DNA of 21,528 nt from a virus. Taxonomy: Duplodnaviria > Heunggongvirae > Uroviricota > Caudoviricetes. Location of the stretch: the IMG/VR virus record IMGVR_UViG_2526164668_000015, one strand, 5' to 3'. The notes under the pieces are model-generated. The model did not search any database. It saw nothing but the letters and a program-made list of their open reading frames with translations, and had not been told where the DNA came from. Made by a program: the position numbers and the translations under genes. Position 1 is the first letter of the stretch. Each line of letters begins with the position of its first letter. Positions 430 to 19,758 of this stretch are shown here, in pieces.

Positions 430-615
430 TTATTCCGGAAACTGCTGTCTGGCTTTTTTGATTTCAGAATTAGCCTGACGGGCAATGCTGCGAAGGGCGT
501 TTTCCTGCTGAGGTGTCACTGAACAAGCCCCATGTCGGCAAGCATAAGCACACAGAATATGAAGCCCGCTGCCAGAAAAATGCATTCAGTGGTTGTCATA
601 CCTGGTCTCTTTCAT
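430..615 (-). pseudogene. lambda orf61-like reading frame with an in-frame TGA at codon 10
   Basis: ATG at 615 gives MKETRYDNH, then TGA, then the same frame continues MHFSGSGLHILCAYACRHGACSVTPQQENALRSIARQANSEIKKARQQFPE to TAA at 430. The total of 61 codons matches lambda orf61 length and position relative to orf63. The stop is seen directly in the sequence. Confidence 0.4.
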
Positions 616-787
616 CTGCTTCTGCTTTCGCCACCATCATTTCCAGCTTTTGTGAAAGGGATGTGGCTAACGTATGAAATTCTTCGTCTGTTTCTACTGG
701 TATTGGCACAAACCTGACTCCAATTTGAGCAAGGCTATGTGCCATCTCAATACTCGTTCTTAACTCAACAGGAGATGCTTTGTGCAT
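596..787 (-). CDS. lambda Orf63-like small protein
   Basis: 63-aa ORF at the position and length of lambda orf63, downstream of exo in the pL operon. It overlaps orf60a and orf61 as in lambda. Confidence 0.65.
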   Translation of the reverse strand: MHKASPVELRTSIEMAHSLAQIGVRFVPIPVETDEEFHTLATSLSQKLEMMVAKAEADERDQV

Positions 788-942
788 ACCGCCTCCCGTT
801 TATTATTTATCTTCTCAGCCAGCCGCTGTGCTTTCAGTGGATTTCTGATAACAGAAAGGCCGGGAAATACCCAGCCTCGCTTTGTAACGGAGTAGACGAA
901 AGTGATCGCGCCTACCCGGATATTATCGTGAGGATGCGTCAT
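760..942 (-). CDS. lambda Orf60a-like small protein
   Basis: ORF immediately downstream of exo on the minus strand, 60 aa from the second in-frame Met. Position and length are as in lambda. Confidence 0.6.
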
Positions 943-1619
943 CGCCATTGCTCCCCAAATACAAAACCAATTTCAGCCAGTGCCTCGTCCATTTTTTCGA
1001 TGAACTCCGGCACCATCTCGTCAAAACTCGCCATGTACTTTTCATTCCGCTCAATCACGACATAATGCAGTCCTTCACGCTTCATACGCGGGTCATAGTT
1101 GGCAAAGTACCAGGCATCTTTTCGTGTCACCCACATGCTGTACTGCACCTGGGCCATGTAGGCCGATTTTATGGCCTCGAAACCACCGAGCCGGAATTTC
1201 ATGAAATCCCGGGAGGTAAACGGGCATTTCAGTTCAAGGCCGTTGCCGTCACTGCATAAACCATCCGGAGAGCAGGCGGTGCGCATACTTTCGTCGCGAT
1301 AGATGATCGGGGATTCAGTAACATTCACGCCGGAAGTAAACTCAAACAGGGCTCTGGCGTCGTTTTCGTACTGTTTTCCCCAGGCCAGCGCTTTAGCGTT
1401 AACTTCCGGAGCCACACCGGTGCAAACCTCAGCAAGCAGGGTGTGGAAGTAGGACATTTTCATGTCAGGCCACTTTTTTCCGGAGCGGGGTTTTGCTATT
1501 ACATTATGAACTTCTGACGCTGTGATGACACCGAGCCGTAATTTGTGCCACGCATCATCCCCCTGTTCGACAGCTCTCACGTCGATCCCGGTACGCTGCA
1601 GGATAATGTCCGGTGTCAT
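939..1619 (-). CDS. exo: lambda exonuclease (Red-alpha, 5'-3' dsDNA exonuclease)
   Basis: 226-aa translation [65 protein letters not shown]... ending ...[11 protein letters not shown] matches lambda Exo in length and sequence as recalled. Confidence 0.97.
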
Positions 1620-2403
1620 GCTGCCACCTTCTGCTCTGCGGCTTTCTGTTTCAGGAATCCAAGAGCTTTCACTGCTTCGGCCTGTGTCAGTTCTGACGAT
1701 GCGCGAATGTCGCGGCGAAATATCTGGGAACAGAGCGGCAATAAGTCGTCATCCCATGTTTTATCCAGGGCGATCAGCAGAGTGTTAATCTCCTGCATGG
1801 TTTCATCGTTTACCGGAGTGATGTCGCGTTCCGGCTGGCGTTTCTGCAGTGTATGCAGTATTTTTCGACAATGCGCTCGGCTTCATCCTTGTCATAGATA
1901 CCAGCAAATCCGAAGGCCAGACGGGCACACTGAATCATAGCTTTATGCCGTAACATCCGTTTAGGATGCGACTGCCACGGCCCCGTGATTTCTCTGCCTT
2001 CGCGGGTTTTGAATGGTTCGCGGCGGCATTCATCCATCCATTCGGTAACGCAGATCGGATGATTACGGTCCTTGCGGTAAATCCGGCATGTACAGGATTC
2101 ATTGTCCTGCTCAAAGTCCATGCCATCAAACTGCTGGTTTTCATTGATGATGCGGGACCAGCCATCAACGCCCACCACCGGAACGATGCCGTTCTGCTTA
2201 TCAGGGAAGGCGTAAATTTCTTTCGTCCACGGATTAAGGCCGTACTGGTTGGCGACGATCAACAATGCGATGAACTGCGCATCGCTGGCATCGCCTTTAA
2301 ATGCCGTCTGGCGAAGAGTGGTGATCAGTTCCTGTGGGTCGACAGAATCCATGCCGACACGTTCAGCCAGCTTCCCTGCCAGCGTTGCGAGTGCTGTACT
2401 CAT
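1616..2403 (-). pseudogene. bet: bet (Red-beta single-strand annealing protein) disrupted by frameshift
   Basis: The N-terminal 187 aa (MSTALATLAGKLAERVGMDSV...DKDEAERIVE) match lambda Bet, then the frame changes to KYCIHCRNASRNATSLR-stop. The Bet C-terminus ([18 protein letters not shown]...[11 protein letters not shown]) continues in another frame at 1616..1798. Two extra A residues relative to the lambda codons, in the runs gtcgaaaaatact and gcagaaacgcc near 1830-1860, account for the net +2 shift. Confidence 0.9.
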
Positions 2404-2408
2404 CCGTT

Positions 2409-2825
2409 TTATACCTCTGAATCAATATCAACCTGATGGTGAGCAATGGTTTCAACCATGTACCGGATGTGTTCTGCCATGCGCTCCTGAAACTCAACAT
2501 CGTCATCAAACGCACGGGTAATGGCTTTTTTGCTGGCCCCGTGGCGTTGCAAATGACCGATGCATAGCGATTCAAACAGGTGCTGGGGCAGGCCTTTTTC
2601 CATGTCGTCTGCCAGTTCTGCCTCTTTCTCTTCACGGGCTATCTGCTGGTAGTGACGCGCCCAGCTCTGAGCCTCAAGACGATCCTGAATGTAATAAGCG
2701 TTCATGGCCGAACTCCTGAAATAGCTGTGAAAATATCGCCCGCGAAATGCCGGGCTGATTAGGAAAACAGGAAAGGGGGTTAGTGAATGCTTTTGCTTGA
2801 TCTCAGTTTCAGTATTAATATCCAT
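2409..2825 (-). CDS. gam: Gam, RecBCD inhibitor
   Basis: 138-aa translation [61 protein letters not shown]... matches lambda Gam. Confidence 0.97.
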
Positions 2826-2923
2826 TTTTTATAAGCGTCGACGGCCTCACGAAACATCTTTTCATCGCCAATAAAAGTGGCGATAGTGAATTTAGTCTGG
2901 ATAGCCATAATTGTTTGATCCAT
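2780..2923 (-). CDS. kil: Kil (host killing, FtsZ-targeting) protein
   Basis: 47-codon [50 protein letters not shown], overlapping gam and cIII as in lambda. Confidence 0.85.
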
Positions 2924-3056
2924 TTTTTTGGACTCCTGGCTGATTAAGTATGTCGATAAGGCGTTTCCATCCGTCACGTAATTTACGGGTGATTCGTTCA
3001 AGTAAAGATTCGGAAGGGCAGCCAGCAACAGGCCACCCTGCAATGGCATATTGCAT
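2892..3056 (-). CDS. cIII: CIII, FtsH protease inhibitor that stabilises CII
   Basis: 54-aa translation [54 protein letters not shown] from ATG at 3056. This is below the 60-aa ORF-track cutoff and was found by hand. Confidence 0.9.
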   Translation of the reverse strand: MQYAIAGWPVAGCPSESLLERITRKLRDGWKRLIDILNQPGVQKNGSNNYGYPD

Positions 3057-3128
3057 GGTGTGCTCCTTATTTATACATAACGAAAAACGCCTCGAGTGAA
3101 GCGTAATTGGTATGCGGTAACGCCGCGC

Positions 3129-3497
3129 TCAGGCGGCCTTGATAGTCATATCATCTGAATCAAATATTCCTGATGTATCGATATCGGTAATTCTTATTCC
3201 TTCACTACCATCCATTGGAGGCCATCCTTCCTGACCATTTCCATCATTCCAGTCGAACTCACACACAACACCATATGCATTTAAGTCGCTTGAAATTGCT
3301 ATAAGCAGAGCATGTTGCGCCAGCATGATTAATACAGCATTTAATACAGAGCCGTGTTTATTGAGTCGGTATTCAGAGTCTGACCAGAAATTATTAATCT
3401 GGTGAAGTTTTTCCTCTGTCATTACGTCATGGTCGATTTCAATTTCTATTGATGCTTTCCAGTCGTAATCAATGATGTATTTTTTGATGTTTGACAT
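3129..3497 (-). CDS. ea10: Ea10 (Ssb-like early protein)
   Basis: 122-aa ORF MSNIKKYIIDYDWKASIEIEIDHDVMTEEKLHQINNFW... at the lambda ea10 position between cIII and the N-proximal region. Confidence 0.88.
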   Translation of the reverse strand: MSNIKKYIIDYDWKASIEIEIDHDVMTEEKLHQINNFWSDSEYRLNKHGSVLNAVLIMLAQHALLIAISSDLNAYGVVCEFDWNDGNGQEGWPPMDGSEGIRITDIDTSGIFDSDDMTIKAA

Positions 3498-3514
3498 CTG
3501 TTCATATCCTCACA

Positions 3515-3543
3515 GATAAAAAATCGCCCTCATCTTGGAGGGC
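3515..3543 (-). terminator. candidate intrinsic terminator (minus-strand tL-type) upstream of ea10
   Basis: On the minus strand GCCCTC-caagat-GAGGGC is followed by GATTTTTTAT: a 6-bp GC stem, 6-nt loop and U6 tract. Confidence 0.4.
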
Positions 3544-3685
3544 AAAGAAGATTTCCAATAATCAGAACAAGTCGGCTCCTGTTTAGTTACGAGCGACATT
3601 GCTCCGTGTATTCACTCGTTGGAATGAATACACAGCGCTGTGTTTATTCTGTTGTTTGCGTGAAAATGAAATCCGCCTGAGCGGG

Positions 3686-4567
3686 TTATGACCACTTTTT
3701 GTTTGGGTTTCGTTGGTGAGCGTGGTTTACAGGATTATTTGATATACCCCATAACTCTGACTCGCTTATCTCTACACGAGAGAAAGACCTGCTTTCTTTC
3801 AGTTCTTTTATAAACCTAGAACCTAAGATGACATCTATTGTACCAGAAAGTTCTTGTAAAAGATCTATGTTTTTTCTGAGGAAGAAAATATCTTCTTTAT
3901 ATTTAATTTTTACATAGAATTTATTCTGTATTTTTAATATATCAAAGCATGGCAGATATCTATATCCCTCATATTTTCGCCACTGCTTAACAATTATAAC
4001 ATCTTTTTCATTTACTGCATTAATCAGCCCAAGACCAAGTACAGGTATGAATATTCTATTGTCTGCCGAAAGCGTACAATTATCACCACCAGGCAAATAT
4101 GTATAAATCATGTCGGAATTTTTATACGCATCAACGAATGCACGTAAGAAGCGTACATATTTTTGCCATCCGTTTATACCGAATTTACCATATAAGTATT
4201 CTTTATTTGTTAGAAGAAAACTATTTGTATCAGGATCCTTATCTACAGACCTGTCGATAAGATCTCCAACTACGTTTACAAAGTCAAAGACAGAGTTTAA
4301 TAAGAACAATTGTCTTTCAGTAGGGCGAATTTCAATTATGTAGCCAGGATGAAGACGATATTGCATCTGCTTACGAAGTATACCGAACGCTTGGGTCCGA
4401 GCATCTGAAAGCAACTTCTTGTCGCCATCGCCGTGAGCATTGTTTCTAATAAAACTGATATAATTTGCTAATTTTTCAGCCTCTTTTTTGTGTTTTTTTC
4501 GCTCTGATGCTGAGTCTATTGGTTTTGGTATGGACTTGTAATCAATCTTCTTCATTACGTACCTCAT
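3686..4567 (-). CDS. hypothetical 293-aa protein, AT-rich, translationally coupled to N; function unknown
   Basis: Long minus-strand ORF whose ATG (4567..4565) overlaps the N stop codon (4566..4564) in an ATGA arrangement. It occupies the lambda ral/sieB interval between N and ea10, but the translation (MRYVMKKIDYKSIPKPIDSASERKKHKKEAEKLANYISFIRNN...) resembles neither. Base composition is visibly more AT-rich than the flanking lambda-like genes. Confidence 0.8.
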   Translation of the reverse strand: MRYVMKKIDYKSIPKPIDSASERKKHKKEAEKLANYISFIRNNAHGDGDKKLLSDARTQAFGILRKQMQYRLHPGYIIEIRPTERQLFLLNSVFDFVNVVGDLIDRSVDKDPDTNSFLLTNKEYLYGKFGINGWQKYVRFLRAFVDAYKNSDMIYTYLPGGDNCTLSADNRIFIPVLGLGLINAVNEKDVIIVKQWRKYEGYRYLPCFDILKIQNKFYVKIKYKEDIFFLRKNIDLLQELSGTIDVILGSRFIKELKESRSFSRVEISESELWGISNNPVNHAHQRNPNKKWS

Positions 4568-4887
4568 GCCAATGGAATGGATTCCCCTTTAACCTTTTGT
4601 CTTCCTTGACAAGTTATACCGAACTCACCTGGCTTGCTATACCAAACTCGATGATTCTTGCGCTCAATACGTTGCAGGTTGCTTTCAATCTGTTCGTGGT
4701 ATTCAGCCAGCACCGTAAGGTCTATCGGATTCAGTGCGCTTTCTACTCGTGATTTCGGTTTGCGATTCAGCGAGAGAATAGGGCGGTTAACTGGTTTAGC
4801 GCTTACCCCAACCAACAGGGGATTTGCTGCTTTCCATTGAGCCTGTTTCTCTGCGCGACGTTCGCGGCGGCGTGTTTGTGCATCCAT
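4564..4887 (-). CDS. N: N transcription antiterminator
   Basis: 107-aa translation from ATG 4887: MDAQTRRRERRAEKQAQWKAANPLLVGVSAKPVNRPILSLNRKPKSRVESALNPIDLTVLAEYHEQIESNLQRIERKNHRVWYSKPGEFGITCQGRQKVKGESIPLA. The N-terminal arginine-rich motif matches lambda N as recalled; the C-terminal third carries several substitutions. Confidence 0.95.
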   Translation of the reverse strand: MDAQTRRRERRAEKQAQWKAANPLLVGVSAKPVNRPILSLNRKPKSRVESALNPIDLTVLAEYHEQIESNLQRIERKNHRVWYSKPGEFGITCQGRQKVKGESIPLA

Positions 4888-5044
4888 CTGGATTCTCCTG
4901 TCAGTTAGCTTTGGTTGTGTGTGGGAGTCGTAGTCCTGAACGAAAACACCCCGCAATGGCACATTGGCAGCTAATCCGGATTCGCACTTCCGGCCAATGC
5001 TTCGTTTCGTATCACACACACCAAAGCCTTCTGCTTTGAATGCT

Positions 5045-5075
5045 GCCCTTCTTCAGGGCTTAATTTTTAAGAGCC
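5045..5075 (-). promoter_or_regulatory. nutL (boxA-like plus boxB hairpin)
   Basis: On the minus strand: GGCTCTTAAAAATTAAGCCCTGAAGAAGGGC. BoxB GCCCTGAAGAAGGGC is the exact lambda nutL boxB; the boxA-like element reads GGCTCTTA rather than the recalled lambda CGCTCTTA. Confidence 0.75.
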
Positions 5076-5120
5076 TCACCTTCAATGGTGGTCAGTGCGT
5101 CCTGCTGATGGCTTAAAATT

Positions 5121-5188
5121 ACAAGGAAGATTGTATGTTGTAAACAAGAAATATTGTAAAAAGGGGCGTGAAAAACAAACTCCATTGT
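5121..5188. promoter_or_regulatory. oL operators (434-type 14-mers) with pL
   Basis: Three 14-bp sites with ACAA...TTGT ends: ACAAGGAAGATTGT (5121-5134), ACAAGAAATATTGT (5144-5157), ACAAACTCCATTGT (5175-5188). They are of the 434 operator class and sit upstream of the N leader. Confidence 0.85.
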
Positions 5189-5238
5189 TTTTAAACGGAA
5201 AATAGTTTGTTTTTTTGTTATCGAGATTGAGGTGGGGA

Positions 5239-6591
<1,353 letters not shown>

Positions 6592-6599
6592 GACATTCC

Positions 6600-6631
6600 C
6601 GCTCTTACACATCCCAGCCCTGAAAAAGGGC
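6600..6631 (+). promoter_or_regulatory. nutR (boxA CGCTCTTAC plus boxB GCCCTGAAAAAGGGC)
   Basis: Exact lambda nutR boxA (6600-6608) and boxB hairpin (6617-6631) lie between cro and cII. Confidence 0.85.
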
Positions 6632-6710
6632 ATCAAAATAAACCACACCTATGGTGTATGCATTTATTTGCATACATTCAATCAATTGTTATCTAAGGAA
6701 ATACTTACAT

Positions 6711-7004
6711 ATGGTTCGTGCAAACAAACGCAACGAGGCTCTACGAATCGAGAGTGCGTTGCTTAACAAAATCGCAATGCTTGGAACTGAGAAGACAGCG
6801 GAAGCTGTGGGAGTTGATAAGTCGCAGATCAGCAGGTGGAAGAGGGATTGGATTCCAAAGTTCTCAATGCTGCTTGCTGTTCTTGAATGGGGTGTCGTCG
6901 ACGACGACATGGCTCGATTGGCACGACAAGTTGCTTCGATTCTCACCAATAAAAAACGCCCGGCGGCAACCGAGCGTTCTGAACAAATCCAGATGGAATT
7001 CTGA
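6711..7004 (+). CDS. cII: CII transcriptional activator
   Basis: 97-aa translation MVRANKRNEALRIESALLNKIAMLGTEKTAEAVGVDKSQISRWKRDWIPKFSMLLAVLEWGVVDDDMARLARQVASILTNKKRPAATERSEQIQMEF matches lambda CII. Confidence 0.95.
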   Translation: MVRANKRNEALRIESALLNKIAMLGTEKTAEAVGVDKSQISRWKRDWIPKFSMLLAVLEWGVVDDDMARLARQVASILTNKKRPAATERSEQIQMEF

Positions 7005-7026
7005 GGTTATTACTGGAACTATCAAC
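6950..7026 (-). ncRNA. oop: oop antisense RNA (overlaps 3' end of cII)
   Basis: Minus strand GTTGATAGTTCCAGTAATAACCTCAGAATTCCATCTGGATTTGTTCAGAACGCTCGGTTGCCGCCGGGCGTTTTTTATT matches the recalled lambda oop RNA with a few substitutions. It ends in a GC-rich hairpin plus U-tract. Confidence 0.7.
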
Positions 7027-7036
7027 AGGAGTCATT

Positions 7037-7936
7037 ATGACAAATACAGCAAAAATACTCAACTTCGGCAGAGGTAACTTTGCCGGACAGGAGCGTAATG
7101 TGGCAGATCTCGATGATGGTTACGCCAGACTATCAAATATGCTGCTTGAGGCTTATTCAGGCGCAGATCTGACCAAGCGACAGTTTAAAGTGCTGCTTGC
7201 CATTCTGCGTAAAACCTATGGGTGGAATAAACCAATGGACAGAATCACCGATTCTCAACTTAGCGAGATTACAAAGTTACCTGTCAAACGGTGCAATGAA
7301 GCCAAGTTAGAACTCGTCAGAATGAATATTATCAAGCAGCAAGGCGGCATGTTTGGACCAAATAAAAACATCTCAGAATGGTGTATCCCTCAAAACGAGG
7401 GAAAATCCCCTAAAACGAGGGATAAAACATCCCTCAAATTGGGGGATTGCTATCCCTCAAAACAGGGGAACACAAAAGACACTAATACAAAAGAAAATAG
7501 AAAAGATTATTCGTCAGAGAATTCTGGCGAATCCTCTGACCAGCCAGAAAACGACCTTTCTGTGGTGAAACCTGATGCTGCAATTCAGAGCGGCAGCAAA
7601 TGGGGGACAGCAGAAGACCTGACCGCCGCAGAGTGGATGTTTGACATGGTGAAGACTATCGCGCCATCAGCCAGAAAACCGAATTTTGCAGGGTGGGCTA
7701 ACGATATCCGCCTGATGCGTGAACGTGACGGACGTAACCACCGCGATATGTGTGTGCTGTTCCGCTGGGCCTGCCAGGACAACTTCTGGTCCGGTAATGT
7801 GCTGAGCCCGGCCAAACTCCGCGACAAGTGGACCCAGCTCGAAATCAACCGTAACAAGCAACAGGCAGTCGTGACAGCCAGCAAACCAAAACTCGACCTG
7901 ACAAACACAGACTGGATTTACGGGGTGGATTTATGA
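7037..7936 (+). CDS. O: O replication initiator
   Basis: 299-aa translation MTNTAKILNFGRGNFAGQERNVADLDDGYARLSNMLLEAYSGADLTKRQFKVLL... matches lambda O and contains the origin iterons. Confidence 0.97.
   Translation: MTNTAKILNFGRGNFAGQERNVADLDDGYARLSNMLLEAYSGADLTKRQFKVLLAILRKTYGWNKPMDRITDSQLSEITKLPVKRCNEAKLELVRMNIIKQQGGMFGPNKNISEWCIPQNEGKSPKTRDKTSLKLGDCYPSKQGNTKDTNTKENRKDYSSENSGESSDQPENDLSVVKPDAAIQSGSKWGTAEDLTAAEWMFDMVKTIAPSARKPNFAGWANDIRLMRERDGRNHRDMCVLFRWACQDNFWSGNVLSPAKLRDKWTQLEINRNKQQAVVTASKPKLDLTNTDWIYGVDL
7385..7530 (+). repeat. lambda-type origin: four ~18-bp O-binding iterons plus AT-rich unwinding region
   Basis: ATCCCTCAAAACGAGGGA, ATCCCCTAAAACGAGGGA, ATCCCTCAAATTGGGGGA and ATCCCTCAAAACAGGGGA in tandem, followed by an AT-rich stretch, all inside O. 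Confidence 0.85.
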
Positions 7937-8634
7937 AAAACATCGCCGCACAGATGGTTAACTTTGACCGTGAGCAGATGCGTCGGATCGCCAACAACAT
8001 GCCGGAACAGTACGACGAAAAGCCTCAGGTACAGCAGGTAGCGCAGATCATCAACGGTGTGTTCAGCCAGTTACTGGCAACTTTCCCGGCGAGCCTGGCT
8101 AACCGTGACCAGAACGAACTGAACGAAATCCGCCGCCAGTGGGTTCTGGCTTTCCGGGAAAACGGGATCACCACAATGGAACAGGTTAACGCAGGAATGC
8201 GCGTAGCCCGTCGGCAGAATCGACCATTTCTGCCATCACCCGGGCAGTTTGTTGCATGGTGCCGGGAAGAAGCATCCGTTATCGCCGGACTGCCAAACGT
8301 CAGCGAGCTGGTTGATATGGTTTACGAGTATTGCCGGAAGCGAGGCCTGTATCCGGATGCGGAGTCTTATCCGTGGAAATCAAACGCGCACTACTGGCTG
8401 GTTACCAACCTGTATCAGAACATGCGGGCCAATGCGCTTACTGATGCGGAATTACGGCGCAAGGCTGCCGATGAACTGTCCTGTATGACCGCACGAATTA
8501 ACCGTGGTGAGGCTATACCTGAACCAGTAAAACAACTTCCTGTCATGGGCGGTAGACCTCTAAATCGTGCACAGGCTCTGGCGAAGATCGCAGAAATCAA
8601 AGCTAAGTTTGGGCTGAAAGGAGCAAGTGTATGA
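7933..8634 (+). CDS. P: P replication protein (DnaB helicase loader)
   Basis: 233-aa translation MKNIAAQMVNFDREQMRRIANNMPEQYDEKPQVQQVAQIINGVFSQLLATFPAS... matches lambda P. The start overlaps the O stop. Confidence 0.97.
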   Translation: MKNIAAQMVNFDREQMRRIANNMPEQYDEKPQVQQVAQIINGVFSQLLATFPASLANRDQNELNEIRRQWVLAFRENGITTMEQVNAGMRVARRQNRPFLPSPGQFVAWCREEASVIAGLPNVSELVDMVYEYCRKRGLYPDAESYPWKSNAHYWLVTNLYQNMRANALTDAELRRKAADELSCMTARINRGEAIPEPVKQLPVMGGRPLNRAQALAKIAEIKAKFGLKGASV

Positions 8635-8921
8635 CGGGCAAAGAGGCAATTATTCATTACCTGGGGACGCATAATAGCTTCTGTGCGCCGGACGTTGCCG
8701 CGTTAACAGGCGCAACAGTAACCAGCATAAATCAGGCCGCGGCTAAAATGGCACGGGCAGGTCTTCTGGTTATCGAAGGTAAGGTCTGGCGAACGGTGTA
8801 TTACCGGTTCGCTACTAGGGAAGAACGGGAAGGAAAGATGAGCACGAACCTGATTTTTAAGGAGTGTCGCCAGAGTGCCGCGATGAAACGGGTATTGGCG
8901 GTATATGGAGTTAAAAGATGA
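8631..8921 (+). CDS. ren: Ren (protects against Rex exclusion)
   Basis: 96-aa ORF MTGKEAIIHYLGTHNSFCAPDVAALTGATVTSINQAAAKMARAGLLVIEGK... matches lambda Ren and is coupled to P. Confidence 0.9.
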   Translation: MTGKEAIIHYLGTHNSFCAPDVAALTGATVTSINQAAAKMARAGLLVIEGKVWRTVYYRFATREEREGKMSTNLIFKECRQSAAMKRVLAVYGVKR

Positions 8922-8994
8922 CCATCTACATCACTGAGCTAATAACAGGCCTGCTGGTAATCGCAGGCCTTTTTATTTGGGGGAGAGGGAAGTC

Positions 8995-9435
8995 ATGAAA
9001 AAACTAACCTTTGAAATTCGATCTCCAGCACATCAGCAAAACGCTATTCACGCAGTACAGCAAATCCTTCCAGACCCAACCAAACCAATCGTAGTAACCA
9101 TTCAGGAACGCAACCGCAGCTTAGACCAAAACAGGAAGCTATGGGCCTGCTTAGGTGACGTCTCTCGTCAGGTTGAATGGCATGGTCGCTGGCTGGATGC
9201 AGAAAGCTGGAAGTGTGTGTTTACCGCAGCATTAAAGCAGCAGGATGTTGTTCCTAACCTTGCCGGGAATGGCTTTGTGGTAATAGGCCAGCCAACCAGC
9301 AGGATGCGTGTAAGCGAATTTGCGGAGCTATTAGAGCTTATACAGGCATTCGGTACAGAGCGTGGCGTTAAGTGGTCAGACGAAGCGCGACTGGCTCTCG
9401 AATGGAAAGCGCGATGGGGAGATCGGGCTGCATGA
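8995..9435 (+). CDS. ninB: NinB (Orf recombination mediator)
   Basis: 146-aa ORF MKKLTFEIRSPAHQQNAIHAVQQILPDPTKPIVVTIQERNRSLDQNRKLWACLGDV... matches lambda NinB. Confidence 0.9.
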   Translation: MKKLTFEIRSPAHQQNAIHAVQQILPDPTKPIVVTIQERNRSLDQNRKLWACLGDVSRQVEWHGRWLDAESWKCVFTAALKQQDVVPNLAGNGFVVIGQPTSRMRVSEFAELLELIQAFGTERGVKWSDEARLALEWKARWGDRAA

Positions 9436-9959
9436 CTATCAAATCAAATACGCCAGCACACGACAAGGACTGCTGGCAAACGCCGCTTTGGCTTTTTGAT
9501 GCACTGGATATTGAGTTTGGATTCTGGCTGGATTCGGCAGCGAGCGACAAAAACGCTCTGTGCGCTCACTGGCTAACTGAGGCTGACGACGCGCTAAATT
9601 CTGAGTGGATAAGCCACGGTGCAATCTGGAATAACCCACCGTACAGCAATATCAGGCCGTGGGTGGAAAAAGCCGCTGAGCAGTGCATACAACAGCGACA
9701 GACGGTAGTGATGCTTGTGCCAGAGGATATGTCTGTCGGATGGTTCAGCAAGGCTCTGGAGAGTGTTGACGAAGTTCGTATTATCACTGATGGACGGATT
9801 AATTTTATCGAACCATCGACAGGGCTGGAGAAGAAGGGAAACAGCAAAGGCTCCATGCTGCTGATTTGGCGACCGTTCATTAGTCCTCGACGGATGTTTA
9901 CTATCGTATCCAAAGCGGCATTGATGGCGATCGGGCAGGGCGTCAGGAGGGCGACATGA
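9432..9959 (+). CDS. phage Dam-family DNA N6-adenine methyltransferase (orphan MTase)
   Basis: 175-aa [51 protein letters not shown]...[21 protein letters not shown]... with the (D/N)PPY catalytic motif. It is ATGA-coupled to ninB on one side and ninE on the other, in the position of lambda ninC/ninD. Confidence 0.8.
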
Positions 9960-10138
9960 GGCGACAACGACGAAGTTTCACCGACATCATCTGCGAAAAC
10001 TGCAAATACCTTCCAACGAAACGCTCCAGAAATAAACGCAAGCCAATCCCAAAAGAATCTGACGTAAAAACCTTCAACTACACGGCTCACCTGTGGGATA
10101 TCCGGTGGCTAAGACATCGTGCGAGGAATACAAGGTGA
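9956..10138 (+). CDS. ninE: NinE
   Basis: 60-aa [63 protein letters not shown], lambda NinE-like. Confidence 0.8.
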
Positions 10139-10305
10139 TTGACCCAAATCGAAGTTACGAACAAGAAAGCGTCGAGCGGGCTTTAACGTGCGCTAATTGC
10201 GGTCAGAAGCTGCATGTGCTGGAAGTTCACGTGTGTGAGCACTGCTGTGCAGAGCTGATGAGCGATTCGAATAGCTCGATGCACGAGGAAGAAGATGATG
10301 GCTAA
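10135..10305 (+). CDS. ninF: NinF (Cys-rich small protein), probable GTG start
   Basis: [56 protein letters not shown] matches lambda NinF. The GTG at 10135 overlaps the ninE stop. Confidence 0.75.
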
Positions 10306-10909
10306 ACCAGCGCGAAGACGATGTAAAAACGATGAATGTCGGGAATGGTTTCACCCTGCATTCGCTAATCAGTGGTGGTGCTCTCCAGAGTGTGGAACCA
10401 AGATAGCACTCGAACGACGAAGTAAAGAACGCGAAAAAGCGGAAAAAGCAGCAGAGAAGAAACGACGACGAGAGGAGCAGAAACAGAAAGATAAACTTAA
10501 GATTCGAAAACTCGCCTTAAAGCCCCGCAGTTACTGGATTAAACAAGCCCAACAAGCCGTAAACGCCTTCATCAGAGAAAGAGACCGCGACTTACCATGT
10601 ATCTCGTGCGGAACGCTCACGTCTGCTCAGTGGGATGCCGGACATTACCGGACAACTGCTGCGGCACCTCAACTCCGATTTGATGAACGCAATATTCACA
10701 AGCAATGCGTGGTGTGCAACCAGCACAAAAGCGGAAATCTCGTTCCGTATCGCGTCGAACTGATTAGCCGCATCGGGCAGGAAGCAGTAGACGAAATCGA
10801 ATCAAACCATAACCGCCATCGCTGGACTGTCGAAGAGTGCAAGGCGATCAAGGCAGAGTACCAACAGAAACTCAAAGACCTGCGAAACAGCAGAAGTGAG
10901 GCTGCATGA
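10295..10909 (+). CDS. ninG: NinG (Rap) recombination-associated endonuclease
   Basis: 204-aa [54 protein letters not shown]... matches lambda NinG. Confidence 0.9.
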
Positions 10910-11571
10910 ATATCTACGAAAGAATTGATGGCAGCAAATACCGAAATATTTGGGTAGCTGGCGACCTGCACGGATGCTACACGAACCTGATGAACAAACT
11001 GGATACGATTGGATTCGACACCAAAAAAGACCTGCTCATCTCGGTTGGCGATTTGGTTGATCGCGGTACAGAGAACGTCGAATGTCTGGAATTAATCACA
11101 TTCCCCTGGTTCAGAGCTGTGCGTGGAAACCATGAGCAAATGATGATTGATGGCTTATCAGAGCGTGGAAACGTTAATCACTGGCTGCTTAATGGCGGTG
11201 GCTGGTTCTTTAATCTCGATTACGACAAAGAGACTCTGGCTAAAGTTCTTGCCCATAAAGCAGAAGAACTTCCGTTAATCATCGAACTGGTGAGCAAAGA
11301 TAAAAAATATGTCATTTGCCACGCCGATTATCCTTGTGATAAATACGAGTTTGGAAAGCCAGTTGATCATCAGCAGGTAATCTGGAACCGCGAACGAATC
11401 AGCAACTCACAAGACGGGATCGTGAAAGAAATCAAAGGCGCGGACACGTTCATCTTTGGTCATACGCCAGCAGTGAAACCACTCAAATTTGCCAACCAGA
11501 TGTATATCGATACTGGCGCAGTGTTCTGCGGAAACCTCACATTGATTCAGGTACAGGGAGAAGGCGCATGA
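10906..11571 (+). CDS. ninI: NinI Ser/Thr protein phosphatase (lambda PPase)
   Basis: 221-aa ORF with calcineurin-like metallophosphatase motifs GDLHG, GDLVDRG and GNHE. It matches lambda NinI and follows ninG directly with no ninH. Confidence 0.9.
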
Positions 11572-11657
11572 GACTCGAAAGCGTAGCTAAATTTCATTCG
11601 CCAAAAAGCCCGATGATGAGCGACTCACTACTGGCCACAGTTTATTGGTTTTCGTAA
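11568..11657 (+). pseudogene. Q: truncated remnant of lambda Q antiterminator (29 codons)
   Basis: ATG overlapping the ninI stop encodes [20 protein letters not shown], identical to the lambda Q N-terminus as recalled. It then diverges (LLATVYWFS) and stops at 11655-11657. Confidence 0.7.
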
Positions 11658-11700
11658 CTGAGTCATTTTATTATTTTATTGCAACTTTTAATCTTTTATA

Positions 11701-11747
11701 GTGCGAAATAAATGGAGCTGGCATTCATTTCGCACTTTATGTTTTTG
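11701..11747. terminator. hairpin plus T-tract between convergent genes (candidate bidirectional terminator)
   Basis: GTGCGAAAT (11701-11709) pairs with ATTTCGCAC (11727-11735) as a 9-bp stem around a 17-nt loop, followed by TTTATGTTTTTG. It lies between the Q remnant (+) and the convergent outer-membrane gene (-). Confidence 0.45.
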
Positions 11748-11782
11748 TTGGACTTATGTTATTTTGATTGAATTCAATTCAG

Positions 11783-12742
11783 TTAAAAAAAGAAGGTGAT
11801 TGCTCCATTTATAAATGAATAGTCATCCCCTGTCTTGAATTCTGATGTTACTTTATTAAATGCTAGTGTGAAGGCTACAGGTGCATACCCAATTGTTGCG
11901 CCAACTTGATATTCATCAACAGTTTTGTTTAGCGATACTGTTGTTTGTTTCGTCTGTATTGTTTTTCCTTCGAGAGTATAGTTGCGATTGACATCTCGTC
12001 TTTCCATACCTGCAAAAATCTTGTATTTGAATCCGCTTGTATCGGACATATGCATTAAACCACGGGGAGCCAGCAGACCAAAGCCATTATCCGAATTGAA
12101 GGTTTTATCATTACCAATGGCAATGGTTGCGCCATATGCTACATATTGAAATAAGTTTCCAGTAACAGCAGAAACTTCAGGGTATAATCCAACATTAGCA
12201 CCTAAAATATCCATACTTGGTGTCATGGATAGCATCCCTTTTACAGTATAACCGTAGCGATTCTCTATTTGATCATCCCATGCATGATATTTTTCTGCCC
12301 CAATAATCTCATGAGCTTTATTTTGTACTTTCTGACCGCCTGCGTCGGGGCCAACAACACCTATGTCAGTACCTAATCGATAGCGAATCCAGTCATTCGC
12401 AAGGGAGTTCCATTCAATACCAGTGTGAGTGTATGCACTAAAAGCTCTGTCTCCAGTTACAGCTGTGTTGTGTCTTTTATTACTGCCTGATGGAGAGTAA
12501 ATATCTTGCGCAATATGGAGAGATAATTGGCTCGAGTCTGAGATATCGTGGCTATATCCCAGAAATAAGCCTTGTGAGTAATCATCTCTGTTTTCATGTT
12601 TATTGCCATAAATATCATTAAGTATTGGTTGAAACTTCCCTGCATCATCATTTGCTAATGATAATGCAAGGCTGTTCGCGATAGCTGAACACGTGGTAAA
12701 TGACAGAGCAATAAAGACGCCAGCGATGACACTTTTTTTCAT
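11783..12742 (-). CDS. outer-membrane beta-barrel protein; size and architecture compatible with an LpxR-type lipid A 3'-O-deacylase (unverified)
   Basis: 319-aa ORF with signal peptide MKKSVIAGVFIALSFTTCSAIA and C-terminal aromatic beta-signal ...INGAITFFF. It is AT-rich with a long AT-rich upstream region (12743-13130). The LpxR assignment rests only on length, OMP architecture and a recalled prophage-encoded LpxR in pathogenic E. coli. Confidence 0.8.
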   Translation of the reverse strand: MKKSVIAGVFIALSFTTCSAIANSLALSLANDDAGKFQPILNDIYGNKHENRDDYSQGLFLGYSHDISDSSQLSLHIAQDIYSPSGSNKRHNTAVTGDRAFSAYTHTGIEWNSLANDWIRYRLGTDIGVVGPDAGGQKVQNKAHEIIGAEKYHAWDDQIENRYGYTVKGMLSMTPSMDILGANVGLYPEVSAVTGNLFQYVAYGATIAIGNDKTFNSDNGFGLLAPRGLMHMSDTSGFKYKIFAGMERRDVNRNYTLEGKTIQTKQTTVSLNKTVDEYQVGATIGYAPVAFTLAFNKVTSEFKTGDDYSFINGAITFFF

Positions 12743-13216
12743 ATGTTATTGTCTTCCTTTTTTTTGAATGGTGCGCGTATTTTACATACATGAGTTTGTA
12801 ATACAAGGTGCGTAATCAATATGATGTTTTATAATTGCGTGAGACAATTGATTTATTCGTTTTTTATTGCGGTTTTTATTATCTTTTAATGTAACGGTGT
12901 TTTTATTAAGTGTGTTTGCGTGGTGTTTTATGTTTTTTATAATTTTTATTTTATTAAATTTAAATGCATTAGTAATGGCTATTCTATATAGCAATATAAG
13001 AACTGTTACAAAAAAAGGGGGGCAATTACAGGTAGTTATGGATGATGAGTGAAACAGATATTGGAGAACCGGGGAATGAATGATGTCTGAGTCTTATATA
13101 TCAGAACTCCTTCGCTGTCGCTGGGGGCTCCTGTGCTTATGTCGTTTCCCCGATTCGGTTTTGAACGATTACCGAATGTTGAAGAATTATGCCAAAATAT
13201 AGAAAGGATTTACTGC

Positions 13217-13906
13217 ATGAATACCCAATATTTACAGTATGTTCGTGAGCAACTTATGGCAGCTACTGCTGACTTGAACGGAGCAACGAAAGGCCAGCTC
13301 GAAGCCTGGCAGGAGCATGCACAATTTGATACTGGTACATACAAACGAAAGAAGCTGCGCATTCTGGATGTGGTAACTGGCAAGATGATTACGCTGGATA
13401 ATACGCCGACTTCCGGTAAGCAGTCGTACGCAAAAGGTTCATCCATTGCTTTGGTCAGCCCGGTTGAATTCTCAACCTCTTCATGGCGCCGCGCGGTTTT
13501 GTCTCTCGATGAACATCAGAAAGCATGGTTGCTTTGGTGTTACAGCGAAAGCGTTCGATGGGGGCATCAGGTCACCATAACGCAATGGGCATGGAGCGAG
13601 TTTAAAGATTTGTTAAGTAACAGAAAAATTGCAGGTAAGACACTGGATCGCCTGAAGACGTTAATCTGGCTGGCTGCACAGGATGTGAAGAGCGAACTTG
13701 CAGGGCGTGAGGCCTATGAATACCAGACACTGGCATCATTGGTGGGAGTGACAACAAAAAACTGGTCCGAGACATTTACTGAACGCTGGGTTGCAATGAA
13801 GCACATTTTTCTACAGCTTGATAGTGATGCTTTATTGCTTGTGACGAGAACACGTTCAAAACAAAAGGCAGCATTTTTACAGCAAAATATTGCAAAACTG
13901 GATTAA
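13217..13906 (+). CDS. putative late-gene antiterminator (Q-like, non-lambda family), 229 aa; alternative start at 13133
   Basis: ORF with an AAAGGA Shine-Dalgarno before ATG 13217. It sits where Q is expected, after the nin genes and the Q remnant, and is immediately followed by a sigma70 promoter plus short-transcript terminator. There is no recognisable similarity to lambda Q, so the assignment is by position and context only. Confidence 0.5.
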   Translation: MNTQYLQYVREQLMAATADLNGATKGQLEAWQEHAQFDTGTYKRKKLRILDVVTGKMITLDNTPTSGKQSYAKGSSIALVSPVEFSTSSWRRAVLSLDEHQKAWLLWCYSESVRWGHQVTITQWAWSEFKDLLSNRKIAGKTLDRLKTLIWLAAQDVKSELAGREAYEYQTLASLVGVTTKNWSETFTERWVAMKHIFLQLDSDALLLVTRTRSKQKAAFLQQNIAKLD

Positions 13907-13918
13907 AAGCCATATACT
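13890..13918 (+). promoter_or_regulatory. candidate late promoter (pR'-like): TTGCAA-N17-TATACT
   Basis: -35 TTGCAA (13890-13895), 17-nt spacer, -10 TATACT (13913-13918), directly downstream of the Q-like ORF stop. Confidence 0.5.
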
Positions 13919-13951
13919 TCATGCAAATTTGGTATGTTGTAAAAAATGTAT

Positions 13952-13978
13952 AAACCCGCTGCCGAGTGGGTTTTTTTT
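13952..13978 (+). terminator. intrinsic terminator (tR'-like) about 30-50 nt downstream of the candidate late promoter
   Basis: AAACCCGC-tgccga-GTGGGTTT followed by TTTTTTTT: an 8-bp stem (one G-U pair), 6-nt loop and T8 tract. Confidence 0.65.
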
Positions 13979-14247
13979 ATGCCCTGAGTTGTACTTGTAC
14001 GGTAAACATGCTGGCTGCTATGTAATAGAGTTTTTTTAGCCTGTAACCTCTTGACGGCATTGAATTGCTTTTGTTATGAGTTGTAAGCCAATGTTATCAT
14101 CTTGTATTGGGGTGGTTATGAAGGATGGTGCGCTGCTCAGGAGTTCTTCACTTTTTATTGCCTACATGGGATGCCTTGGATGGGGGAGTGCTTATTTCTA
14201 TGGATGGGGTACTTCTTTTTACTACGGCTTCCCATGGTGGATTGTAG

Positions 14248-14595
14248 GTGCAGGTGTTGATGATGTTGCCAGAAGTTTATTTTTTTGCAGTTATCGTCAT
14301 TGCTATATTTCTTATCGGTTGGGGTATTGGTGTTGTATTCTTTTTCGCAGTGAAAAGAAAACATTCTATGCAAGAGCTAAATGTATTTCGCCTTTATTTT
14401 GCTGTGGAATTATTGTTTGTGCCGGCAATTATTGAGTTTTCTATATTGAGACAGAAGATTCAGGTACCTCTTTTGCTACTGTCAGCAGCGATTGCGCTGG
14501 CGGTTACAATTTCGATAAGATCTTATGGGCGATTTTTATCGGTATCATGCTTCTATGATAAGCCATTTATAAAAAACATTTTTTTGAGATTGTGA
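14248..14595 (+). CDS. small integral membrane protein (about 3 TM helices), AT-rich cargo gene
   Basis: Translation ...LPEVYFFAVIVIAIFLIGWGIGVVFFFAVKRKHSMQELNVFRLYFAVELLFVPAIIEFSILRQKIQVPLLLLSAAIALAVTISI... has three hydrophobic segments. The start is ambiguous (GTG 14248, ATG 14260 or 14263). An overlapping upstream ORF (14076-14435) may be its frameshifted N-terminus. Confidence 0.5.
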   Translation: MQVLMMLPEVYFFAVIVIAIFLIGWGIGVVFFFAVKRKHSMQELNVFRLYFAVELLFVPAIIEFSILRQKIQVPLLLLSAAIALAVTISIRSYGRFLSVSCFYDKPFIKNIFLRL

Positions 14596-14834
14596 TGATT
14601 GCTTTTGTGGCATATTTTTGGCTTTTTTCATTTCTGACAGGATATTACAAACCACAGTTTAAGAAAGAATATGAAATGATTAATTATAATGATGGTTGGT
14701 ATTATGTTCTTGCTCGTTATGATAATTGTCTGGTTTTGTCTACTTCTTTCAATGCAGGTAGTAAAAGGTTTGTCATTTATCAATCAGCACAAGATAAGAA
14801 TCTTCAGGTTGATATTGTAAGGACCAGAATTTAA
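14592..14834 (+). CDS. small protein with N-terminal TM helix, coupled to the preceding membrane protein
   Basis: MMIAFVAYFWLFSFLTGYYKPQFKKEYEMINYNDGWYYVLARYDNCLVLSTSFNAGSKRFVIYQSAQDKNLQVDIVRTRI. The ATG overlaps the upstream TGA stop (ATGA). Confidence 0.5.
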   Translation: MMIAFVAYFWLFSFLTGYYKPQFKKEYEMINYNDGWYYVLARYDNCLVLSTSFNAGSKRFVIYQSAQDKNLQVDIVRTRI

Positions 14835-15124
14835 TTGGCTGCATAAATAATATTTTAAGTTGCAAGTTGGCTATTCGTAGGAATAGAACCTTAGGCATGC
14901 TGAATGCGTTTTCTGAACATTGTTTTATAAACTGTGTCTGCTTGCTGTTGTGATCCTGCTTTTAGTGATGGTGATGATGGATTTCACCAGCAGGATAATG
15001 TTGGTACTGACTGATGGCGCTCTGGTCTGCGGCATTGTGGTATTGCTGTGGCCGATGATGAAAGAACAGGTGATGCTGCCAACTTACTGATTTAGTGTAT
15101 GATGGTGTTTTTTGAGGTGCTCCA

Positions 15125-15400
15125 GTGGCTTCTGTTTCTATCAGCTGTCCCTCCTGTTCAGCTACTGACGGGGTGGTGCGTAACGGCAAAAGCACCGCCG
15201 GACATCAGCGCTATCTCTGCTCTCACTGCCGTAAAACATGGCAACTGCAGTTCACTTACACCGCTTCTCAACCCGGTACGCACCAGAAAATCATTGATAT
15301 GGCCATGAATGGCGTTGGATGCCGGGCAACTGCCCGCATTATGGGCGTTGGCCTCAACACGATTTTACGTCACTTAAAAAACTCAGGCCGCAGTCGGTAA
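15125..15400 (+). CDS. insA: IS1 InsA
   Basis: 91-aa translation [91 protein letters not shown]. Confidence 0.95.
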
Positions 15401-15822
15401 CCTCGCGCATACAGCCGGGCAGTGACGTCATCGTCTGCGCGGAAATGGACGAACAGTGGGGCTATGTCGGGGCTAAATCGCGCCAGCGCTGGCTGTTTTA
15501 CGCGTATGACAGTCTCCGGAAGACGGTTGTTGCGCACGTATTCGGTGAACGCACTATGGCGACGCTGGGGCGTCTTATGAGCCTGCTGTCACCCTTTGAC
15601 GTGGTGATATGGATGACGGATGGCTGGCCGCTGTATGAATCCCGCCTGAAGGGAAAGCTGCACGTAATCAGCAAGCGATATACGCAGCGAATTGAGCGGC
15701 ATAACCTGAATCTGAGGCAGCACCTGGCACGGCTGGGACGGAAGTCGCTGTCGTTCTCAAAATCGGTGGAGCTGCATGACAAAGTCATCGGGCATTATCT
15801 GAACATAAAACACTATCAATAA
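15319..15822 (+). CDS. insB: IS1 InsB (transposase produced as InsAB' by frameshift)
   Basis: 167-aa ORF ...[72 protein letters not shown] overlapping insA in the -1 frame. Confidence 0.95.
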
Positions 15823-16581
15823 GTTGGAGTCATTACCAGTACCTTGTAGCCTTTATTTGCAGGATATAAAGGTAAAAACTCGGTTAATAATGGGTCAGGA
15901 CCTTTAATAGTTGTAAACTTGAACAAAATGACGTTAATATTATTAACGTAGATGATATTATCAGAACAACCTTCTTGCCATCCATTTTATCGCATTCAAA
16001 CATTATAAATGTACTTAGTATTATTCATAAATGATATCAAGATGGCACCTTAACCTTCACCCAAACGACGTTAACCAAATAAAAGAAAGTTAAGATGCCA
16101 TCGAAATATCATTAATTGCTGCATATCCTTTATCATACAATAACAAATGTTCTCCTTATTGTTTTTTTGTGCATCCCTGCTTTTAATATTTACATGCAAT
16201 GGAAAAACAGTATATGGAGAGAACTTTTCCGCAAAACATTTTCATATCCTACGCTCCTGAAATATAACAGATCCACTCAGACATAAATCGCAAAAAATTC
16301 AAGGTTAACGTAAAATGTAAAAAACTTAGCGTAACTAATATTGGTTTACCTTCGTTACTGTAAATACGCCAACATAGCATAGATAATCAATGAGGTATAG
16401 TCTGTTTATGAGAATTAATTTATAAAAACAAGTGAATAACAATGGAGAATTAATCCTTGCAGCTTATGAGTTTGTGAAGCAATTGGGAAAGAAAAATATA
16501 AATGATGTGAAAAAAAATAATTATTCGTCTTACCAATGCACTCGAGACTACTGATCCTACCCACGTAATGTGGACACGGCC

Positions 16582-17435
16582 CTAAGCGAGATTATGGTTT
16601 TCAAATTGTTCCGGGCTGAGACCGCCACAGGCACTGTGACGACGCCAGCGATTGTAATCACACTCGATATAATTAAACACCGTTGCCCGCATTATTTCCC
16701 GGCTGCTAAAGCGTTCCCCGTGGATACATTCCACCTTCAGCGAATGAAAGAAGCTTTCCACACAGGCATTGTATAACAGTAGCCTTTCGCACTCATACTG
16801 CCACGCAGGTTGTGTCGCTTCAGCAGCGCCTGATAATCCCCTGAACAGTATTGACCACCACGGTCCGTATGAACAATGACGCTTTCCGGGCGTCTTCTCC
16901 GCCACAACGCCATTTGCAGTGCATCACAGGCCAGTTGTGCTGTCATTCGCGGTGACATCGACCAGCCAATAACGGCGCGTGACCACAGGTCGATGACTAC
17001 TGCGAGATACAACCAGCCCTCATCGGTACGCAAGTACGTGATGTCACCCGCCCACTTCTGGTTCGGGCCGCTGGCGCTGAAGTCCTGCTCCAGCAGATTC
17101 TCCAATACGGGCAGGCCATGTGCACGGTAGCTGACCGGGCTGAACTTCCGGCTGGCTTTCGCCCGCAGCCCCTGACGACGCAGGCTGGCGGCAATGGTTT
17201 TAATATTGAACTCCGGCAGTTCGTCAGCAAGGCGGGGAGCACCGTATCGCTGCTTTGCCTCAAAGAATGCCTTATGGACAGCGGCATCGCAGGTGAGCCG
17301 AAACTGTTGGCGCAGGCTCATCTGGTGACGACGCCTGAGCCAGACATACCAGCCGCTGCGGGCAACCCGAAGTACACGACACATCGCTTTGATGCTGAAC
17401 TCTGCCCGATGATTTTCGATGAAGACATACTTCAT
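16582..17435 (-). pseudogene. IS3-family transposase OrfB (InsF-like DDE) with an internal frameshift
   Basis: InsF-like sequence [30 protein letters not shown]...[30 protein letters not shown] runs to about 16775 and then stops ([14 protein letters not shown]-stop). The InsF C-terminus ([19 protein letters not shown]...[14 protein letters not shown]) continues in another frame at 16582-16773. This is consistent with a 1-nt deletion near TGTTATACAATGCC, where IS3 as recalled has TGTTATGACAATGCC. Confidence 0.8.
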
Positions 17436-17731
17436 TTCAGGCGCTTCGCGAAGTATGTCGCGGCCTTTTGGAGGATGGCCAGTTCCTCAGCCTGCTCCGC
17501 CAGTTGTCGTTTAAGGCGGACATTTTCAGCGGCCAGTTCGCTTTCGCGCTCTGACGAACTCATTTGTTGCTGCTGTTTACTGCGCCAGGCATAAAGCTGG
17601 GATTCATACAGGCTGAGTTCACGGGCTGCGGCGGCCACACCGATGCGTTCAGCGAGTTTCAGGGCTTCGTTACGAAATTCAGGCGTATGTTGTTTACGGG
17701 GCTTCTTGCTGATTGATACTGGTTTTGTCAT
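17432..17731 (-). CDS. IS3-family transposase OrfA (InsE-like, HTH)
   Basis: 99-aa [102 protein letters not shown]. Confidence 0.9.
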
Positions 17732-18049
17732 GAGTCACCTCTGGTTGAGAGTTTACTCACTTAGTCCTGTGTCCACTATTGGTGGGTAAGATCATAAATA
17801 CCCATTCAATACGCTGTATGGCCGCTGAAAGAACATTTTCTTCCGCTATGACTTTTTGTGTACCTCTCATACATAGCCCTGATAAAGCATTCTGATTTAA
17901 CTTTCTGTCAAATACGAGGCAACCAGTCCGTAATCAACCACACAACAAACCAGAACCCCATCATCAGAATCAAATACTCCATGATGACTGAAATACTTAT
18001 TTTCATATCATTACCGCACCCTGATAATATTCAGTACAGAATTATCCCA

Positions 18050-18847
18050 TTACTGATACTCAATACTCACTGGCAGGGACACATTCCAGCGTTCTGTTTT
18101 ATCTCCCCACAGATGTAATTCGCCGGTGTCAGCAATAGTCCGGGCACCATAAACACCTTCAATCTGGCGAAGAGCAGTATCGCTGAAATGGCTTACGCCT
18201 GTCTCTGAACTTACTGACATCGTCGGCAACCACCCCGGACCTTCACCATCAAACATTGACTGCAGTAATCCGGGAATCTGCTCTGTGTTCAGAACATGGG
18301 ACTTATCAGGCAGACCGTTTCCCCCTACATCATCATATATACTGGTATAAGTAACCTGACCGTTACTTACATGCCGCATAAGTCCTGCCGCCTGCATACG
18401 AAACGTAAAATGACCAATCCGATGGCTATCTTCCCCCGTAACAGGCAATGTAACATCTGCAACTCCTGGTGTGGCCCACACCAGAGAAAAATCCTCAATA
18501 CCTTTTCCGAATATAATTCGGGGAGCCAGCCCCTCACGTCCGGCAGGTGTGGTAAGAACTGTTTTTCCCAGTACAAGATTCATGGCAGGCAAAGAAACAG
18601 GAACCACCGTATCTCCACTACGTGAAACCGGAGAATGTTTGACATTCAGGTTTGACTTCCCTTCTCCTATCTTCCACACCCAGGGATTACGGGTACTGGT
18701 TACTGGACCGCCCAGTTTAAGTTCACCACTGAAATCCTGACCGGGTGTATTCCAGGCCAGAACACTGAATGGAAAAAAACAAACAATCAGAAATAACAAA
18801 ACAGAATTCTTCACATTTTTCTCCACTATTGTTTCCCTGCCATTCAT
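18050..18847 (-). CDS. secreted protein, paralog C of a three-member family (pilus/adhesin-like?)
   Basis: ATG at 18847 overlaps the stop of the upstream gene (ATGA). Signal peptide [31 protein letters not shown], motif [12 protein letters not shown] shared with the upstream paralogs, and a C-terminal beta-strand ...[11 protein letters not shown]. Confidence 0.7.
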
Positions 18848-19620: not shown

Positions 19621-19686
19621 CGAACTAAATTCATGCTATTTACTCCTCATCCTTTAAAACAGAAGTCGGATGTATCGTTTTTGGAA

Positions 19687-19719: not shown

Positions 19720-19758
19720 CAAATAATAAATGGTTTCTACTTATTTAAGTTCTGTGCA

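Follow-up and report, generated by a model that had tools for sequence, protein, structure and literature searches.

The gene dam at positions 9432-9959 (+) of a 21,528-nt stretch of Caudoviricetes DNA (IMG/VR record IMGVR_UViG_2526164668_000015), the whole of which we refer to as the window, encodes a 175-aa protein that, judging from its sequence, is almost certainly a solitary S-adenosylmethionine (SAM)-dependent DNA N6-adenine methyltransferase (MTase) methylating the adenine of GATC. We consider it highly probable that the gene is best explained as a lambdoid phage Dam that modifies GATC, is expressed from an N-dependent nin operon and presumably serves the role laid out below. The feature itself is ordinary and already known: it is annotated in phage 434, named by an NCBI equivalog model, and its VT-2 homolog was cloned and characterized in 2001. 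Its value as a discovery is low, and the questions that remain are known gaps of the field rather than findings of this window.

Profile searches placed the product in PF05869 ('Dam') with 217.2 bits against a cut-off of 28.1 (E = 1.5e-64, profile positions 1-167 of 169) and in TIGR01712, the NCBIfam equivalog for the phage N-6-adenine-methyltransferase, with 262.8 bits against a cut-off of 97.05 (E = 8.8e-79, positions 1-165 of 165). It also matched phrog_111 (PHROG 'DNA methyltransferase'; 3.4e-87), and PADLOC labeled it an 'orphan methyltransferase'. As judged from these matches, the product is the lambdoid-phage 'Dam' of the PF05869/TIGR01712 family and far beyond a chance open reading frame (ORF). 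A preliminary description of this DNA had proposed an orphan adenine MTase and had named a profile assignment outside the MTases as the outcome that would speak against it; PF05869, TIGR01712 and phrog_111 are all MTase families, and the N6-adenine MTase assignments and the PADLOC label agree with the proposal. The adjacent cognate endonuclease of a Type II restriction-modification system is absent, as the preliminary description had stated: The Pfam search, the 434 annotation and PADLOC reveal no restriction endonuclease gene in any part of the window, and the neighbors of dam are all identified lambdoid genes (ren, ninB, ninE, ninF, ninG/rap, the ninI phosphatase, lpxR and Q).

The product is 100% identical over 174 of its 175 residues to CPT_434_59 of phage 434 (UMO75323.1), annotated as 'DNA adenine methyltransferase', and the two dam genes do not differ. 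Neighbors and overlaps are also the same, the 434 annotation placing dam between the 'recombination mediator' NinB and NinE. Overall, positions 1-15069 of the window are 99.4% identical to positions 28093-43148 of the 434 genome (OL657226; PMC9119081), and the two part only to the right of 15069. A literature search joining phage 434, methyltransferase and ninB returned no match. M.EcoVT2Dam, the 175-aa product of VT2-Sakai orf32 (NP_050531), is identical at 172 of 174 residues, and its two substitutions relative to the window protein, I60V and I158T, lie outside the conserved motifs and the invariant columns of an alignment of 37 homologs. VT2-Sakai likewise carries dam between ninB and ninE with 4-nt overlaps, whereas other parts of its nin region (ant, roi, ninH and another Q) differ from the window. 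Enzymes of the M.EcoVT2Dam type are also found in Phi24B, 933W-type and many other Shiga toxin (Stx) phages. In total, 1566 of 5426 complete E. coli genomes (~29%) carry dam at ≥95% nucleotide identity, with up to five copies per genome, and 244 phage records, many of them of Stx phages, hold the product at ≥95% protein identity. The wider family comprises 8717 clusters at 50% identity (E ≤ 1e-3) in a library of 1.8 billion proteins.

According to PMC6602927, which cites Radlinska & Bujnicki 2001, M.EcoVT2Dam 'is known to target 5'-GATC-3'', and PMC7139368 and PMC7556043 cite the same report for GATC methylation by this enzyme. Moreover, the laboratory that cloned the VT-2 enzyme lists P1, VT-2 and the T-even coliphages as phages whose Dam-like activity 'has been shown' (PMC7139368). 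Together with the near-identity to M.EcoVT2Dam, these statements allow GATC specificity to be deduced for the window protein. Its family also includes T1 Dam (M.EcoT1Dam, NC_005833 39024-39737), a biochemically studied, Gm6ATC-modifying enzyme (PMC4996451), which matches PF05869 at 1.7e-70, is 33% identical to the window product over 158 residues and shows the same order of motifs including NPPY. At 237 aa, T1 Dam is longer, extended by 48 residues at its N-terminus and carrying an insertion of 14 residues, and stems from a virulent siphovirus in which the gene is not part of a nin region. Judging from both relatives, we depart from the preliminary description, which had held that the sequence does not reveal the target specificity.

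Predicted architecture and relation to E. coli Dam

Within the alignment of 37 homologs, the NPPY motif, D34 and T17-P18 are invariant together with 40 other positions. The N-terminal element W15-Q-T17-P18 (9474-9485, +) resembles motif X, and by analogy to M.TaqI-type enzymes it would correspond to the SAM-contacting 'TP' motif expected of gamma-type amino-MTases. It is followed by F31-W-L33-D34-S-A36-A-S38 (9522-9545, +), a motif-I-like first β-strand in which F31, L33, D34 and A36 are invariant and which corresponds to strand E31-36 of the AlphaFold model; this element is a putative SAM-binding site. N68-P-P-Y71 (9633-9644, +), the catalytic motif IV of N6-adenine MTases, lies at the end of strand E64-68 and is evident from the sequence, the alignment and the model alike. 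NPPY and 45 invariant columns of the alignment speak for intact catalytic residues.

The AlphaFold model (predicted local distance difference test, pLDDT, 88.6; predicted template modeling score, pTM, 0.86) depicts a small, single-domain Rossmann-fold MTase that is predicted to have no separate target-recognition domain (TRD). As 133-148 of the 175 residues were aligned among the top structure matches, there is no room for such a domain. Sequence and model suggest that the product is a minimal Rossmann catalytic domain with the gamma-like order W-Q-T-P, F-x-L-D-x-A-A-S and NPPY.

This build sets the protein apart from the alpha-class enzymes E. coli Dam, T4 Dam and DpnM (PF02086), although these share the reaction and the reported target, Gm6ATC. 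Sequence similarity to them is undetectable: Neither PF02086 nor PF01555 was matched even at E ≤ 10, leaving PF05869 as the sole Pfam match. A phmmer search against all chains of the PDB retrieved no MTase at E ≤ 1, its only two matches being insignificant and not MTases (E of 0.18 and 0.71), and it appears that no family member with a solved structure is detectable by sequence. In the structural comparison, only 103-107 residues of E. coli Dam (score 7.9), DpnM (7.2) and T4 Dam (7.1) superpose on the product. Furthermore, enzymes of the E. coli Dam class present motif I, then the TRD and then a C-terminal DPPY, an order that is not found in the window protein with its contiguous gamma-like motifs. 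The shared function is a case of convergence, as has been noted for Dam enzymes of phages and hosts (PMC7139368). The term 'Dam-family' used in the preliminary description is thus correct as a Pfam name (PF05869) and misleading as a statement of kinship to E. coli or T4 Dam.

The nin-region slot and expression of dam

The dam ORF starts with ATG at 9432 and ends with TGA at 9957-9959, spanning 528 nt. At the upstream junction (GCTGCATGACT) the ATG (9432-9434) overlaps the ninB stop codon TGA (9433-9435), and at the downstream junction (GCGACATGAGG) the dam stop codon is overlapped by the ninE ATG (9956-9958). Upstream lies ninB (8995-9435, +), encoding the 146-aa Orf recombination mediator, as assigned by PF05772 (1e-53), the 434 annotation and the junction sequence; downstream lies ninE (9956-10138, +; 60 aa; PF05322 at 1.3e-42 and junction sequence), and the Pfam search identified NinF, NinG/Rap and a NinI-type phosphatase beyond it. 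Coordinates, junctions and neighbors therefore agree with the preliminary description of a 175-aa, NPPY-containing ORF between ninB and ninE with ATGA overlaps at both ends. An in-frame GTG at 9372, giving 195 aa, was ruled out as an alternative start, since homologs and the annotations of 434, VT2-Sakai and RefSeq all show the 175-aa form. The TIGR01712 profile alignment begins at residue 2. A Shine-Dalgarno-like GGGGAG within the 3' end of ninB (9416-9421, +) serves dam, and AGGAGG within the 3' end of dam (9945-9950, +), 5 nt before the ATG, serves ninE; ribosome-binding sites are annotated at both positions in 434.

Alignment with phage lambda showed near-identity through the ninB stop codon (GCTGCATGA), then an unrelated stretch, and near-identity again from about codon 3 of ninE. 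This pattern indicates that the dam cassette replaces ninC and ninD, exactly as had been proposed. In lambda, the same slot holds the 1047-nt ninC-ninD cassette (41081-42123 of NC_001416) in place of the 528 nt of dam. The genes and their functions are unrelated to dam, ninC encoding a 290-aa protein resembling phosphoadenosine phosphosulfate (PAPS) reductase; the flanking DNA is nearly identical, and ninB and ninC meet at an ATGA junction as ninB and dam do here. The slot is a swap-prone one, and the exchange represents textbook lambdoid mosaicism at gene boundaries. In other lambdoid phages, dam plus ninX occupies the ninB-ninE slot.

The overlaps are a general trait of the operon. Between O and the Q fragment lie ten consecutive junctions (7037-11657, +; in the order O, P, ren, orf26, ninB, dam, ninE, ninF, ninG, ninI, Q fragment), of which nine are 4-nt ATGA or, once, GTGA overlaps, and the sole exception is an 11-nt overlap of ninF and ninG. 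ATGA junctions are general in nin regions (Casjens and co-workers, PMC8022706). Given this regularity and the like junction of lambda ninB and ninC, the overlaps are not distinctive of dam. The coupling 'on both sides' that had been described thus holds as an overlap with both neighbors, albeit one that follows an operon-wide rule. Translational coupling of ninB, dam and ninE is plausible.

A tR2-type intrinsic terminator with an 8-bp GC-rich stem and a TTTTATTT tail was found by a terminator scan just upstream of ninB, within the 26-codon orf26 (8947-8980, +; 8947-8970 plus the T-run), and is annotated at the matching site of 434 (OL657226). As dam is located downstream of tR2, its expression is expected to be delayed-early and N-dependent. 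The earlier statement that dam is delivered early from pR thus needs to be qualified. Upon infection or induction, N-modified pR transcripts would pass tR2 into the nin region, and ribosomes ending ninB would begin dam at the overlapping ATG and, on ending dam, begin ninE likewise. In Phi24B, which carries an identical dam, a significant change in expression of the gene upon prophage induction was reported (PMC3342100).

Biological role and competing explanations

Host Dam methylates the virion DNA of lambda and P22 only in part, presumably as it cannot keep pace with replication (PMC3299994, PMC8022706). During lytic replication, the phage Dam would most likely top up GATC methylation of phage DNA that outruns host Dam, so that progeny genomes would be packaged fully Gm6ATC-modified. 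Full modification would shield the DNA from GATC-directed, methylation-sensitive restriction and would likewise spare it the effects of hemi- or unmethylated GATC, such as MutH nicking and SeqA binding, including in dam-poor hosts. An anti-restriction or epigenetic role is plausible and constitutes the weakest part of our explanation.

Several points weigh against this account, some of which concern the target and others the role. GATC is assigned as the target through near-identity to an enzyme reported in 2001 (Acta Microbiol Pol), as cited in later papers. M.Btr190III, a relative of T1 Dam, methylates substantially off target when cloned (PMC4996451), so that strict GATC specificity in vivo cannot be taken for granted. 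How a 175-aa enzyme gains sequence specificity in the absence of a TRD is a known gap of the field. As to the role, Dam is already present in almost all enterobacterial hosts, and the window is depleted about twofold in GATC (43 sites observed versus ~84 expected from trinucleotide frequencies); together, both facts weaken a simple anti-restriction story. The reason for a second GATC methylase in so many lambdoid and Stx phages, whose hosts are Dam+ already, is likewise a known gap, and the authors who cloned the VT-2 enzyme write of phage Dam enzymes that their role 'is still not well understood' (PMC7556043). Moreover, the prophage is broken by IS1 at 15069/15070, which may keep this copy of dam from ever being expressed during a productive lytic cycle.

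It is conceivable, though we would not expect it, that two amendments to our account apply together. The TRD-less enzyme might read GATC unconventionally, e.g. by dimerizing across the palindrome or by means of the poorly modeled hairpin of residues 126-140, and its selective value in Dam+ hosts might be other than anti-restriction, for instance escape from MutH and SeqA at hemimethylated replicating DNA or countering a defense that senses unmethylated GATC.

Less likely still is that the phage Dam acts as an epigenetic regulator of phage or host, which stabilizes lysogeny or times lytic expression through GATC sites in promoters and does not protect DNA. Host Dam was reportedly needed for lysogeny of the Stx2 phage 933W to be stable (Murphy et al. 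2008, cited via PMC3342100), and the authors of the Phi24B study, who detected the product with a lysogen-specific antiserum, suggest that the phage Dam may supplement the host function (PMC3342100). However, given its place behind tR2 in an operon that is delayed-early and requires N, the gene should be silent when the prophage is repressed, and its expression in Phi24B shifts with induction (PMC3342100). Lysogens also obtain Dam from the host already, and no specific GATC-containing regulatory site was found in the window.

We regard it as rather improbable that the enzyme is a relaxed or non-specific adenine MTase, like M.EcoGII or Hia5, that provides broad protection from restriction in place of GATC-specific modification. 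The predicted lack of a TRD would fit such an enzyme, as would M.Btr190III, which methylates GATC but with significant off-target activity (PMC4996451), and prophage-borne, non-specific adenine MTases do exist in E. coli and Haemophilus (PMC5778455, PMC3299994). What speaks against it is that the 99%-identical M.EcoVT2Dam is reported to be GATC-specific, and that M.EcoGII (349 aa, beta-class) and Hia5 (alpha-class) both possess TRDs (PMC5778455), the beta-class M.EcoGI/GII type having the order DPPY, TRD, FxGxG. The window protein differs from them in architecture and matches neither PF01555 nor PF02086. On the basis of these published descriptions, an M.EcoGII- or Hia5-type identity was rejected on size (175 versus ~350 aa), class and Pfam content. 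In addition, Shiga toxin-producing E. coli strains with copies of M.EcoVT2Dam show only the known GATC and CTGCAG motifs and, in addition, CRARCAG, which is attributed to a Type IIG enzyme; the prophage genes may be silent in lysogens (PMC6602927). Finally, methylation of RNA, e.g. of mRNA or rRNA adenines, in place of DNA can be dismissed almost entirely, given a catalytic domain generic to N6-adenine MTases, nearly equal structural scores of the DNA MTases M.BseCI, M.TaqI, MmeI, HsdM and CamA, and the DNA GATC methylation reported for the 99%-identical enzyme and T1 Dam.

GATC sites and the remainder of the window

GATC is the second most depleted 4-bp palindrome of the window after CTAG (3 versus 15 expected), even though the element encodes a GATC methylase. 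Avoidance of GATC in enterobacterial phages is an old observation. Two GATC sites lie near dam, at 9421 (11 nt upstream of the ATG) and at 9929 (27 nt before the stop codon), and we see no reason to read more than chance into them.

The left 9 kb of the window carry exo-bet-gam-kil-cIII-ea10, a Nun-like gene, N, hex, cI, cro, cII, O, P and ren. To the right of dam follow ninE-F-G-I, a Q fragment, lpxR, ylcG and a Q82-type antiterminator gene, and then IS1, an IS3-family element and F4/K88-type fimbrial genes. The identity to phage 434 ends at 15069, near the 3' end of a tciB-like gene. Beyond it we found IS1 with the insA/insB ORFs (15099-15822), the transposase of the IS3-family element ISEc16 (16737-17435, -), three F4/K88-type fimbrial subunit genes (18050-20622, -) and a DUF5462 gene (20844-21335). 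Lysis and structural genes were not found to the right of the IS1 junction in the window. The entire 6.5-kb block (15069-21528) is 100% identical to plasmids of the bovine E. coli strains C7 and C3, which indicates a prophage that is cut short, or fused with plasmid-type DNA, at IS1; the junction could reflect either a true IS1-mediated rearrangement or a join made in assembly.

Compared to lambda, the window lacks ninH. The Q fragment (11568-11657) is a 29-codon N-terminal piece of a lambda-type Q that overlaps ninI by ATGA; the 434 annotation calls it an antiterminator-like fragment, and RefSeq lists it as a pseudogene. A distinct Q82-type gene 1.5 kb downstream (13133-13906; PF06323, 1.1e-91) provides the functional late activator. 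Between the two lies lpxR (11783-12742, -; PF09982, 6.8e-40), encoding a 319-aa outer-membrane lipid A deacylase, a moron-type insertion that phage 434 has too. On the pL side, directly downstream of N, the 434 annotation lists a gene of 870 nt whose product is termed 'Nun C-terminal peptide-containing protein' (434 record 31773-32642; about 3686-4555, -, in the window). Judging from this annotation, which places a Nun-like gene beside N, a 434-type phage would carry both the N antiterminator and a Nun-like terminator-factor motif.
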